Below, one piece after another: positions 12,696 through 16,875 of a stretch of DNA of 64,000 bases. The translations under genes were made by a program, and so were the position numbers. Within the stretch, counting starts at the first letter, position 1. Each line of letters starts with the position of its first letter. The stretch lies in assembly GCF_003334765.1 (NCBI RefSeq), contig NZ_QOWT01000017.1. One strand, written 5' to 3'. The notes under the pieces were generated by a model. The model was not told the origin of the DNA. It worked only from the letters and a program-made list of their open reading frames with translations, and ran no database searches. Source of the DNA: Escherichia coli. Its GTDB lineage: Bacteria; Pseudomonadota; Gammaproteobacteria; Enterobacterales; Enterobacteriaceae.

Positions 12696-12714
12696 ATATA
12701 TACAGATTTGCTGA

Positions 12715-13431
12715 TTATATCAGCGAGGTCAGAGATGCCAACCGGGAAATTTCCAGATGCGGCAGTAAACGGCTGTCCCAGGTTTGCATCAGATCGCCAT
12801 TTTCCGGTCTGATCCAACAAGCCTGCATTCCGCTGCGAATTGCCCCACCCACGTCAGTGGTGAGATCGTCCCCAACATGTAAGATCTCGCCGATCGGCAC
12901 GTTGAGTTTTTCCGCAGCCAAAAAGTACATATCGCTGAACGGTTTTGAGCGCCCGTGCGGGCCAGCGCGCAGCACAAACTCAAAATAATCCCCCAAACCA
13001 AACAGCTCCGGCTGGGCGTTACCGTTGGTGATCGCCACCAGCGGCCATTTCTTCGCCAGCTGTTTTAAGGTGTCGTGAGTTTGCTGCGGGACGTCGATTC
13101 GGCTGCGCCATTTGGCAAAGTTGATCATTGCTGCGTGTGCGCCTGCACTGGCTTCTTCGGCACTCAGCCCGGCGTCGAGCATCGCTTGTTCAATCGAACG
13201 AAAACGCCAGCGCGTCACGTCGTGATAAATCTCGGGTTCCGCTTCCCGTACCGCCTGGCGCAGGCGTTGCAGATCTTCATTCTGGAAGCTGCGCAGCGCC
13301 GGATGATAATTTTGCACAAAGGTAAGCGCCTCTCGCTCGGTGCGCAAAATCACCGGACGGTTATCGTAAAGGGTATCATCCAGGTCAAAGGTGAGCGCCG
13401 AGATGCGCCCCAAAGGCCGGTAAAAACGCAT
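12715..13431 (-). CDS. yigB: HAD-family phosphatase YigB
   Basis: 238 aa with DxDDTLYDN HAD motif I near the N-terminus. Confidence 0.9.
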
Positions 13432-14327
13432 TATTTCCCCCGTTTGGCGCGTGGATGCGCCGCATCGTACACCGAGGCAAGGTGTTGAAAATCAAGATGA
13501 GTATAGATTTGCGTGGTGGAGAGGTTGGCATGACCCAGCAGCTCCTGCACACCACGAAGATCGCCGCTCGACTCCAGCATATGCGTGGCGAACGAGTGAC
13601 GTAATTTATGCGGATGAACGTGATTATTCAGCCCTTGTTTTATGCCCCATTCGGCAAAGCGTTTCTGCACATTACGCGCGGAGATACGCTTGCCCAGTTT
13701 CGACAGAAAAAGCGCGTCGTCTTCGCTACCAAACAGGTCGCGCAAATCAAGCCAGTGCTCAATCCACGCCACAGCGTTGCGACCAATCGGCAGGCGGCGC
13801 TCTTTGCTGCCTTTCCCCATAACCCACACTTCACCAGACTCCAGGTCGAGGTGTTTAATATCCAGCCCCACCAGCTCAGAAAGACGCAGACCCGCGCCGT
13901 ACATCACTTCCAGCATTGCACGGTCGCGTACAGCGAGGGGATCATTGATATCAATATCCAGCAGCCGATTCATATCGTCGACGTCGATGTTTTTCGGCAG
14001 ATGACGCGGCGCTTTCGGTGCCGAAACACCTTTCGCCGGGTTAGCTTTGAGTTCGTTCTGGCTGACCAGCCAGTCAAAAAAGCTACGTAGCGCAGAAAGC
14101 CGTAACGCCAGACTTGCTGCTCCCAGCCCTTTACGGCGACTGCGTACAGCAAAATTGCGCACCATCGTCACATCACATTGCTGCCAGCTTTGCAGGCCGT
14201 TTTCGCTGGCAAAATTGATGATCGCCTCAAGCTGACGCTGGTAGTTAAGCAGGGTTATCGGGCTAAGCTGGCGCTCCACGCTCAGATAACGTAGGTAGCG
14301 TTCTACATCGGTGTGTAAATCGGTCAT
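13431..14327 (-). CDS. xerC: Tyrosine site-specific recombinase XerC (chromosome dimer resolution)
   Basis: 298 aa; catalytic R...HxxR...Y tyrosine recombinase layout ([36 protein letters not shown]); inside the dapF-yigA-xerC-yigB operon. Confidence 0.95.
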
Positions 14328-15031
14328 ACGCGTTCAATCCAACGCTCCAGAAGCTCCGGCAACATCAGCGCAATTTCATGAAGTAACTGCGTTCCTTGCC
14401 CTTGTTGATAGTGACTGGCATCGCGACTGGTAAACAGCACGACACCCAAATCAGCATCGCTTCCCAGCATCGACATCGCCACCGATCCCACCGCTTTCGC
14501 TTCCGGTAGCACCACCAGCAGCTCTGGTCCGTTAAGCGGCCCAAGATAGTGCTGTTCCTGCCCCAAACGCTGAATACGCAGCGGTTCGAAAGACTGACGG
14601 CTTAATGCCAGATGAGTGTGGTTCGACGGCGCACCTAAGCGCCAGCGATCCGGAAACAGGCGCAGACTCGCACCTGCCAGGCCGAGATCGCGCGCCCAGC
14701 GGTGAAAGCGCATCAGCATATCGTCGAGACTGCTGGCGGCGGTGAGACTGCGCTGCAGGTAGAGTAGGCGATAAAACAGGCCTTCGTTGGCGATAGCCTG
14801 TTCCATCAACAGCGCCATGTTCTCTTCCAGAACATGAATATGATTACGTGCGCGGGCCATGTGCCACTCGACCAACGAAACGGTGCCGCGTACCGGATGC
14901 GGCACACGTATCGCTTCTACTGCGCGCGCATTACGGATAAAAAACTCAGGATTTTTAATCAGATAATCGACAACCGCCCGGTCATCAAGCTCCGTGAGTG
15001 TTTCCTGCAGTTCTTCCCCTGGTTGCTTCAT
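14324..15031 (-). CDS. yigA: DUF484-family protein of unknown function
   Basis: 235 aa; start overlaps dapF stop and stop overlaps xerC start (4-nt overlaps). Confidence 0.85.
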
Positions 15032-15852
15032 AGATGAATAAATCCGTCGTAGACATGTACCGCCGGGCCAGTCATATATAACGGGTGACCCGGACCTTTC
15101 CAGGCGATATCAAGACGACCGCCGGGGAGTTCCACGCGTACTTCTTCGGCCAGCAAACCTTGCTGAATCCCTACTGCAACCGCCGCACACGCGCCGCTGC
15201 CGCAGGCCTGGGTTTCTCCTGCCCCACGCTCATAAACGCGTAAACGAATATGCTCGCGCTTAACCACTTGCATAAAACCGATATTGGCGCGCTCCGGAAA
15301 ACGCTCGTGGCTTTCCAGAACAGGACCAAGCGTTTCTACCGCCGCGGTATCGACATCATCGACCTGAATCACGCAATGCGGATTTCCCATCGACACCACG
15401 CCGCATAAGATTGTCTGCTCGGCGGCGCGCATAATATAGGTCTTTTCCGCTTTGTTAGCGCGAAACGGCACGGCGGAAGGTTCGAAGTTGGGTTCGCCCA
15501 TATTTACGCGGACCAGATCATCATCGGTGACGGTCAGAACCATCCGCCCGTTGGCGGTGCTGACGCGGATATCACGCTTATTGGTCAGTCCTTTCAGACG
15601 CACAAAACGGGCAAAGCAGCGCGCACCGTTGCCGCACTGCGCCACTTCACTGCCATCAGCATTGAAAATGCGATAGTGAAAATCCAGTTCAGGATCATAC
15701 GGCGGCTCAACCACCAGCAGTTGGTCAAACCCTACCCCCAGGTGCCGATCAGCCAGGCGACGAATCAGCTCCGGTGAAAAAAAGACATTCTGCGTTACCG
15801 CGTCGACGACCATAAAATCGTTGCCAAGGCCATGCATTTTCGAGAACTGCAT
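15028..15852 (-). CDS. dapF: Diaminopimelate epimerase
   Basis: 274 aa from second Met ([17 protein letters not shown]...); catalytic Cys motifs GNGARC and CGSGACA. Confidence 0.95.
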
Positions 15853-15888
15853 CATTTACTCCAATCACGCGGGTACAGAAACTGACTT

Positions 15889-16092
15889 TTAGTAATTCAC
15901 CTGGGATGGACCATCGCCAGTGGCGCGATCGTTTTTATCCGGCACCGTGGATTGCGTTTGCGTCTCTACCGGTTTGGTCGGCGGCGGTGCGTTTTTATCT
16001 GCAGGCGGGAAATAGAGCGGACCTTTCAGACCGCAGCCCGTCAGGCTGAAGAGAGTAAGTAATACAGTGAGTGCCTTAAACACGTTTTTCAT
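15889..16092 (-). CDS. yifL: Small lipoprotein
   Basis: 67 aa; signal peptide with lipobox LTGC. Confidence 0.8.
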   Translation of the reverse strand: MKNVFKALTVLLTLFSLTGCGLKGPLYFPPADKNAPPPTKPVETQTQSTVPDKNDRATGDGPSQVNY

Positions 16093-16554
16093 TATGGATT
16101 GCCTGTAAAGTTCATCGCTTTCTGCTTTCTATCATCGCAGGAGAAGACGTAAAAGCAAGCGTTTAGCGACTCTTTATGAAGTCTGAAAAGTGAGGAAATG
16201 CTGCGAGTATAACGCTTACTCGTGGGGATTTATGTTTTGCTGGTAGTTTCGTGATCGGCACCTCGCGCCAGGATGGCTTTATGCACTATCGCAATGTGGT
16301 TTGTTTGTTGTCTTTTTTAGTTCCGTCAGCGTGAGGATGCTCGCTCGGTAAACCTGATCATAATGTTTACCAGAAACAGGGAAAGACGTGGTGTAACTGC
16401 GCCCTAATGAAGAGACAAATCTTTCGCTACACAGAGACATCATTATTCCGGTGACGGATGAATCGTGCCGGAACGCAGCCGCAGAGGTGCAAACTTTGAA
16501 GCCCTGACCCCATGCCGCTATACTGCCGCCATCACTTAAAAACAGGATACAACA

Positions 16555-16875
16555 ATGAACGACAGTGAATTTCATCGCCTGGCTGATCAACTCTGGCTGA
16601 CCATTGAAGAACGCCTGGACGACTGGGATGGCGACAGCGATATCGACTGCGAAATCAACGGCGGCGTACTGACCATTACCTTTGAGAATGGCAGCAAAAT
16701 CATTATCAACCGCCAGGAGCCGCTGCACCAGGTATGGCTGGCAACCAAACAGGGCGGCTACCATTTTGACCTGAAAGGCGATGAGTGGATTTGTGATCGC
16801 AGCGGCGAAACCTTCTGGGATTTGCTGGAACAGGCGGCGACGCAGCAGGCGGGTGAAACAGTCAGTTTCCGCTAA
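16555..16875 (+). CDS. cyaY: Frataxin homolog CyaY (iron-sulfur cluster assembly)
   Basis: 106 aa [33 protein letters not shown]; acidic ridge typical of frataxin. Confidence 0.93.

Follow-up and report, generated by a model that had tools for sequence, protein, structure and literature searches.

Introduction

For recombination by purified XerC and XerD, PepA/ArgR/ArcA act as helpers at plasmid sites and FtsK-gamma does so at dif; YigA is not known to be needed in either case. YigA is the DUF484-family protein encoded directly upstream of the tyrosine recombinase gene xerC in Escherichia coli, and it is the subject of the present analysis, which follows up an earlier note made from the letters of a 64,000-nucleotide stretch (the window) of E. 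coli contig NZ_QOWT01000017.1 (assembly GCF_003334765.1). The described Xer factors, namely PepA, ArgR and ArcA (cer/psi), FtsK-gamma (dif) and XafT (TLC-phi), bear no sequence or fold similarity to YigA, and the likeness is limited to a candidate role as a non-recombinase possibly modulating XerC/XerD. A 2017 review of Xer recombination names PepA, ArgR, ArcA and FtsK as accessory factors and does not mention YigA (PMC5357621).

In terms of fold, the closest described protein is PA5279 of Pseudomonas aeruginosa (PDB 3E98), a DUF484 member deposited by structural genomics in 2008 as a 'GAF domain of unknown function', with ~28% identity to YigA. Compared with the small-molecule-sensing GAF domains of PtsP/EI-Ntr, NifA, CodY, phosphodiesterases and phytochromes, YigA has only a 40-residue N-terminal module and is devoid of kinase, AAA+, helix-turn-helix (HTH), phosphodiesterase or GGDEF output, and its pocket region is poorly conserved. 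The free methionine-R-sulfoxide reductase (fRMsr; YebR/MsrC) is a GAF-fold enzyme that employs conserved catalytic and resolving cysteines, for which YigA has no counterpart.

With regard to the gene junctions, the coupled ATGA pairs hyfHI, astDB, ydbH/ynbE as well as menDH (Huber et al. 2019, 2023) are co-directional, overlap by 4 nt and possess a weak or internal Shine-Dalgarno (SD) sequence, in the same manner as dapF/yigA and yigA/xerC. The geometry of the yigA junctions also resembles that of the neighbouring hemCD, wzyE/rffT and rffT/wzxE pairs. The products of dapF, yigA and xerC share no known common complex or pathway.

YigA is a conserved y-gene product, a known gene in a known operon, and the description of the locus in itself holds nothing new to the specialist; no functional study on YigA/DUF484 was found in the literature searched. 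What we propose, with a confidence that is moderate and no higher, is that YigA is a stand-alone adaptor made up of a coiled-coil-type helix and a GAF domain, that its synthesis and that of XerC are chained to upstream translation by reinitiation within a dapF-DUF484-xerC cassette, and that it stands outside the core of the Xer machinery. The overlaps on both sides of yigA call for separating translational polarity from protein function.

YigA as a conserved coding gene

The coordinates of yigA, both of its 4-nt overlaps and the gene names given in the earlier note were found to be right by open reading frame (ORF) analysis, sequence reading and family matches. YigA residues 11–233 align to positions 2–219 of the 219-position PF04340 (DUF484) model with an E-value of 4.7e-90, this being the sole Pfam match of the protein. 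With NF008203 the score is 407.6 bits (cut-off 254), and the description of that family still reads 'hypothetical protein'; YigA is still designated as hypothetical or DUF484 in NCBIfam release 20 (June 2026), as it is in the RefSeq copy of September 2026. Between E. coli and Salmonella, the ratio of non-synonymous to synonymous substitution rates (dN/dS) is 0.058 for yigA, 0.059 for xerC and 0.055 for yigB, and the sequences of all three junctions are kept. Because its dN/dS is on par with those of xerC and yigB, yigA is a real, constrained coding gene.

Screening of 1.84 billion representative proteins with phmmer yielded 864 relatives of YigA at E <= 0.001, and the family alignment comprises 71 full-length members with 22–53% identity to YigA. 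The family is marked by the motif P-[DE]-F-F ... P-H-x3-G-x-[VI]-S-L-[VI]-E ahead of a long helix in which an R, an A and an N are conserved, and YigA carries this N-terminal signature as PEFF (28–31), the P-H-x3-G-x-[VI]-S-L-[VI]-E element at 44–55, R62, A79 and N82. All 71 members have L53 and S183, and at least 90% of them have L24, F30, F31, S52, R62, A79, N82, G164 and G196. Conservation peaks in the N-terminal module (residues 14–52; mean top-residue frequency 0.53) and at the start of the helix, and is lowest in the GAF domain. YigA itself departs from the family consensus at H57 (Q in the family) and Q212 (M in the family).

Two unusual relatives were encountered. P0118, encoded on an ENA contig of 5757 bp, is a protein of 341 aa that is 82% identical to YigA residues 1–230 and then continues into a SpoIIIAB-like tail (PF09548) of the sort typically seen in Firmicutes; chimeric assembly of a metagenome is its most likely origin. 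P0194, with 2693 aa, contains 12 separate stretches matching YigA residues ~200–230 (E 1.3e-18). It may be a repeat protein, or the match may be compositional.

Predicted fold and nature of YigA

The AlphaFold2 model of YigA built from the 71-member alignment has a mean predicted local distance difference test score (pLDDT) of 91.2 and a predicted template modelling score (pTM) of 0.74. It consists of two short helices (residues 17–40), a hairpin (42–52), a 45-residue helix (53–97) and an alpha/beta domain (100–235). The solved member 3E98 is matched both by phmmer against the PDB (E 2.6e-13) and by the family profile (E 2e-69), and YigA has the same fold, i.e. the GAF fold with an antiparallel sheet backed by helices. 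Sequence and fold searches of the PDB with YigA returned GAF proteins only, and the fold search of AFDB50 returned other DUF484 proteins only. The statement in the earlier note that the protein has no recognisable enzymatic motif falls short of what is known, given the GAF fold and the solved homologue.

The 235-aa sequence of YigA has no cysteine and no NKFDE or similar cyclic-nucleotide motif; no catalytic or DNA-binding motif, HTH included, was found in it, and it matches none of the PHROGs (phage) and PADLOC (defence) families. An fRMsr-type enzyme identity was ruled out because YigA is without cysteine. FLAG-tagged Salmonella YigA, expressed from its native locus and used as a control, bound no RNA in vivo (10.1101/466151). 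By its modelled architecture, YigA resembles a stand-alone sensor or adaptor, predicted to be soluble at ~26 kDa, and neither an enzyme nor a nucleic-acid binder.

The distribution of conservation along the sequence fits an arrangement in which the conserved end would be a small partner-binding surface and the GAF domain a variable sensor or dimerisation module, with residues 53–97 presumed from the model to form a coiled-coil or signalling helix. YigA would then most likely be a dispensable, ligand-responsive modulator that touches its partner via the conserved N-terminal module and probably dimerises through the long helix. Any identity given to the ligand and the partner is speculative; XerC would be the leading partner candidate, and DapF, or envelope precursor supply, the second.

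The above evidence also bears on yigA as a mere translated spacer, which would bring ribosomes to xerC while its protein is functionless. As xerC is without a well-placed SD sequence, some upstream translation is probably needed. Against this stand the strong purifying selection on YigA (dN/dS as given above), the invariant residues and confidently predicted fold kept by members at 22–53% identity, the crystallisation of the homologue 3E98 as a folded GAF protein and the persistence of DUF484 where xerC is not downstream. Protein-level conservation thus effectively refutes the spacer, to which we attach next to no probability.

ATGA overlaps and a putative translational relay

On the reverse complement, the dapF/yigA junction reads CATCTATGAAGC, in which the TGA stop and the ATG start share ATGA, and the yigA/xerC junction reads CGCGTATGACCG, in which the yigA stop and the ATG of xerC likewise share ATGA. 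The TAA of xerC and the ATG of yigB overlap by 1 nt at 13431 (TAATG). The stop-to-start distances are accordingly -4 nt for dapF/yigA, -4 nt for yigA/xerC and -1 nt for xerC/yigB, all of them within the -8 to +10 nt considered for coupled pairs (PMC10666635).

The best anti-SD pairing upstream of yigA amounts to -3.3 kcal/mol, ranking 29 of 37 local genes, and the only anti-SD pairing of xerC ends ~13 nt before its ATG; yigB has a strong SD sequence of its own (-8.6 kcal/mol). No promoter-like site was found within yigA by consensus scan, and over the stretch from dapF to yigB that scan gave a single match, a weak terminator-like one at 14083–14095 on the minus strand in early xerC, of a kind found 6 times against 5.7 expected by chance. 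No Rfam element was detected at the locus.

Of the native E. coli ATGA pairs tested, which numbered five, four showed strict termination-reinitiation coupling (PMC6728339), and coupling requires gaps of ~10 nt or less (PMC10666635). The ATGA overlaps would be read most economically, as we infer from the sequence, as a translational relay running from dapF to yigA and on to xerC. Ribosomes ending on dapF would restart on yigA, and those ending on yigA would restart on xerC; because yigA and xerC are without a well-placed SD sequence, such a relay would tie a low-level synthesis of YigA and XerC to the upstream gene's translation. The tight co-translation of yigA and xerC supposed by the earlier note is thereby reasonable, given the weak or misplaced SD sequences of the two genes and the coupling of most native ATGA pairs tested; the adjacency, on the other hand, does not single out XerC.

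The 4-nt overlap is not statistically unusual. Such overlaps occur in 5 of 24 same-strand coding sequence pairs in the annotated MG1655 sequence surrounding the locus (42.8 kb), the other three being hemC/hemD, wzyE/rffT and rffT/wzxE, and 820 pairs at -8 to +10 nt exist genome-wide in E. coli (Huber et al., PMC10666635). Of the E. coli pairs within -8 to +10 nt, 30.4% encode complex subunits, a 4.5-fold enrichment over the 6.8% of pairs more than 20 nt apart (PMC10666635). Given the overlap, the prior for a complex of YigA and XerC rises to about one in three, and that for DapF-YigA does so equally. Moreover, adjacency within the operon is no reliable sign of shared function because the junctions of dapF and of yigB, which encodes a phosphatase of the riboflavin pathway, are equally tight. 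The overlaps alone do not indicate a YigA-XerC complex.

A weak NtrC peak of genomic SELEX (class B, 40%) was reported between yigA and xerC at MG1655 position 3,994,336, with xerC-yigB as the assigned target (PMC8743547). The sigma-70 consensus scan, outside of which sigma-54 promoters fall, gave no promoter at the yigA/xerC junction where this peak lies.

Gene order in other lineages

Gene order around DUF484 was compared across several lineages. Plesiomonas has cyaY/lptM-lysA-dapF-DUF484-xerC-HAD-uvrD, Pasteurella aerogenes dapF-DUF484-xerC-HAD, and a lineage at 27% identity to YigA cyaA-lptM-lysA-dapF-DUF484-xerC-HAD-uvrD; in Thioalkalivibrio the order is lptM-lysA-methyltransferase-dapF-DUF484-xerC-hslV-hslU, and three metagenome lineages have dapF-DUF484-xerC-hslVU. 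A genome-contig scan on non-conserved peptides with P0207 as query gave 27 loci, of which 25 belong to Idiomarinaceae, all with dapF-DUF484-xerC-yigB-uvrD, and two to other Alteromonadales. The adjacency of yigA and xerC, whose conservation the earlier note had proposed to check, therefore extends outside Enterobacteriaceae to Plesiomonas, Pasteurella aerogenes, Idiomarinaceae, Thioalkalivibrio and the metagenome lineages, with the two Alteromonadales loci lacking xerC. The outcome named in the note as a refutation, an adjacency not kept beyond Enterobacteriaceae, did not occur.

At the level of ORFs, the distance from dapF to DUF484 is -4 nt in most related loci; DUF484 and xerC mostly lie -17 to +7 nt apart, the exceptions including two lineages at +41 or +59 nt. 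In every locus examined dapF is directly upstream of DUF484, and what lies downstream of xerC varies, being yigB-uvrD in some lineages and hslVU in others. The conserved core is the dapF-DUF484-xerC triad, an old cassette spread across several gammaproteobacterial orders, and not yigA-xerC alone.

The two loci without xerC are those of Colwellia hornerae (NZ_VOLR01000014.1, 2603–7154; L039) and of an Alteromonadaceae metagenome-assembled genome (2379–7137; L037), both of which have lysA-dapF-DUF484-yigB-uvrD with a DUF484-yigB gap of 8 and 29 nt, respectively, and no xerC in the 7.6-kb locus. DUF484 stayed beside dapF here, and xerC must be elsewhere in the genome or have been replaced. These loci constitute a natural experiment on whether DUF484 follows dapF or xerC.

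The constant position next to dapF brings up the alternative that YigA works with DapF or with the diaminopimelate/peptidoglycan precursor pathway, for instance by sensing a metabolite of the diaminopimelate pathway with its GAF domain and adjusting DapF activity or the synthesis of the envelope, xerC being a passenger. Within the family, conservation is lowest in the GAF pocket, and this speaks against a ligand common to all members; the sole DapF::DUF484 fusion seen (P0260, 515 aa) is the product of a 1-nt frameshift. We regard this alternative as decidedly unlikely. The fusion was rejected upon inspection, as the frameshift lies near the 3' end of dapF (L009 4780–4860, ENA ERZ26166949 contig_124) and the alternative frame reads AWAYRGEVEW-stop, the canonical C-terminus of DapF overlapping the start of DUF484; an indel introduced in long-read assembly probably accounts for it, and not a genuine fusion of domains.

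Plasmid carriage of DUF484 was likewise rejected. Among 72,556 plasmid records only 21 have DUF484, and they resemble chromosome-sized or non-mobilizable chromosomal segments: 19 of the 21 are typed as non-mobilizable, several measure 4–5 Mb, and dapF, often along with xerC, is present in those that are annotated.

Relation of YigA to XerC

The more specific proposal is that YigA is a dedicated regulator of XerC. The helix would relay a signal received by the GAF domain to the N-terminal module; this module, by binding XerC, would license or hold back the recombinase in catalysis, stability or pairing with XerD/FtsK. The overlap would serve to fix the YigA:XerC ratio for co-translational assembly. 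In favour of such a regulator, DUF484 adjoins xerC upstream in Enterobacterales, Pasteurellales, Idiomarinaceae, Thioalkalivibrio and metagenome lineages, whatever follows xerC, and family conservation is strongest in a small N-terminal surface of the type expected of a partner-binding module. The 4.5-fold enrichment of close E. coli pairs for complex subunits points the same way, even though 69.6% of pairs this close do not encode complexes (PMC10666635).

The contact itself was examined by AlphaFold2 co-folding of YigA-(GGGGS)6-XerC, with E. coli and 14 other loci (15 paired rows) and 63 YigA-only rows. In the linked model both proteins are well folded (mean pLDDT 85.6) but the pTM is only 0.48, from a shallow pairing and a monomeric set-up free of DNA, XerD or a YigA dimer, with pTM and pLDDT as the only readouts. 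Over residues 1–60 of YigA the pLDDT is slightly lower in the linked model (46/74/90/85/68/79) than for YigA alone (51/78/92/86/70/84). The linked model, which is a weak test, gave no sign of a confident YigA-XerC interface, and it may be taken as mild evidence against a complex, short of refuting one.

Further observations argue against a dedicated XerC regulator. The two Alteromonadales loci keep DUF484 by dapF with xerC gone from the locus; dapF, whose function is unrelated, is linked to DUF484 just as tightly; and no DUF484 gene is paired with a plasmid-borne Xer-like recombinase in any of the 72,556 plasmid records. Xer recombination, whether reconstituted in vitro from purified components or taking place in Firmicutes, is not known to involve any DUF484 protein, the classic xer screens reportedly gave only argR, pepA, xerC and xerD, and nobody supposes DapF to belong to the Xer machinery. 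A dedicated XerC regulator is doubtful in our estimation, and the role at the XerCD/dif machinery that the earlier note had raised is unsupported.

A broader version would have DUF484/YigA as a ligand-gated XerC regulator conserved across Gammaproteobacteria, perhaps all Proteobacteria, which tunes dimer resolution or Xer-dependent integration of mobile elements by a metabolic signal sensed by GAF; this we hold to be unlikely. If true, the dapF-DUF484-xerC relay would link cell-wall precursor supply to late chromosome segregation, and with a YigA that modulates XerC, a textbook recombination system, and with it the integration of elements that exploit Xer, would gain a further level of regulation.

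Some points weigh against our preferred account of an adaptor whose synthesis, like that of XerC, is chained to upstream translation by reinitiation and which stands outside the core Xer machinery. The bioBF ATGA overlap can still use de novo initiation (PMC6728339), so an overlap of this type need not impose reinitiation. The co-fold evidence against a YigA-XerC contact is weak, being drawn from ~15 paired sequences and a linker construct modelled as a monomer, with only pTM and pLDDT to judge it by. Nearly all, if not all, of the lineages covered for gene order are Gammaproteobacteria, and a DUF484-xerC junction that is kept across orders despite changed flanks would also be expected of a true functional partnership.

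Operon context and neighbouring features

Reportedly, Colloms et al. in 1990 described xerC within a multicistronic unit with dapF and two ORFs. Positions 13300–16100 of the window are 100% identical to MG1655, that is, to a chromosome of E. coli K-12 type, and this block was found in 5426 of 5426 complete E. coli genomes and hence belongs to the core genome of the species. With reference to Table 1, the minus-strand order in the window is lptM, dapF, yigA, xerC and yigB, followed by uvrD. The operon is given as yifL-dapF-yigA-xerC-yigB in a bacteremia transposon-sequencing (Tn-seq) study, in which the whole operon was scored and xerC alone was tested (PMC11376589); the supplements of that paper hold no entry for yigA.

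Table 1 Features of the yigA locus, in positions of the window
Feature	Coordinates	Strand	Basis and remarks
lptM (yifL)	15889..16092	-	NF047847 LptM; RefSeq; first gene of the co-directional block
dapF, diaminopimelate epimerase	15028..15855	-	TIGR00652, E 2.5e-104
ATGA, overlap of dapF stop and yigA start	15028..15031	-	Sequence reading; kept in Salmonella
yigA	14324..15031	-	235 aa, ATG start, DUF484 family
YigA N-terminal module, residues 14–52	14876..14992	-	Two short helices and hairpin; most conserved segment of the family
YigA 45-residue helix, residues 53–97	14741..14875	-	AlphaFold2 model and alignment
YigA GAF domain, residues 98–235	14327..14740	-	Varies most within the family, with G164, S183 and G196 conserved
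ATGA, overlap of yigA stop and xerC start	14324..14327	-	Sequence reading; kept in Salmonella
xerC, tyrosine recombinase	13431..14327	-	TIGR02224, E 7.1e-111, exceeds curated cut-off
yigB, HAD phosphatase of riboflavin synthesis	12715..13431	-	NF008018
Sigma-70-like promoter in the last codons of yigB	12714..12741	-	TTGGCA, 16-nt spacer, TATAAT, TG-extended -10; 11/12 matches

The spacing between lptM and dapF is 33 nt (15856–15888) when measured from the longest dapF ORF; the RefSeq start of dapF is the second ATG at 15852. The sigma-70-like promoter, which is strong and close to consensus, sits where the promoter of uvrD would be expected, so that the coding sequence of yigB appears to double as uvrD promoter, and by its sequence it would mark the downstream end of the block.

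On the other side of the block, the lptM-cyaY interval contains at ~16251–16429 on the plus strand a frameshifted, truncated fragment annotated by RefSeq as a 'DKNYY family protein' pseudogene. A minus-strand ORF of 161 aa at 16279–16764 has no RefSeq annotation and is probably spurious.

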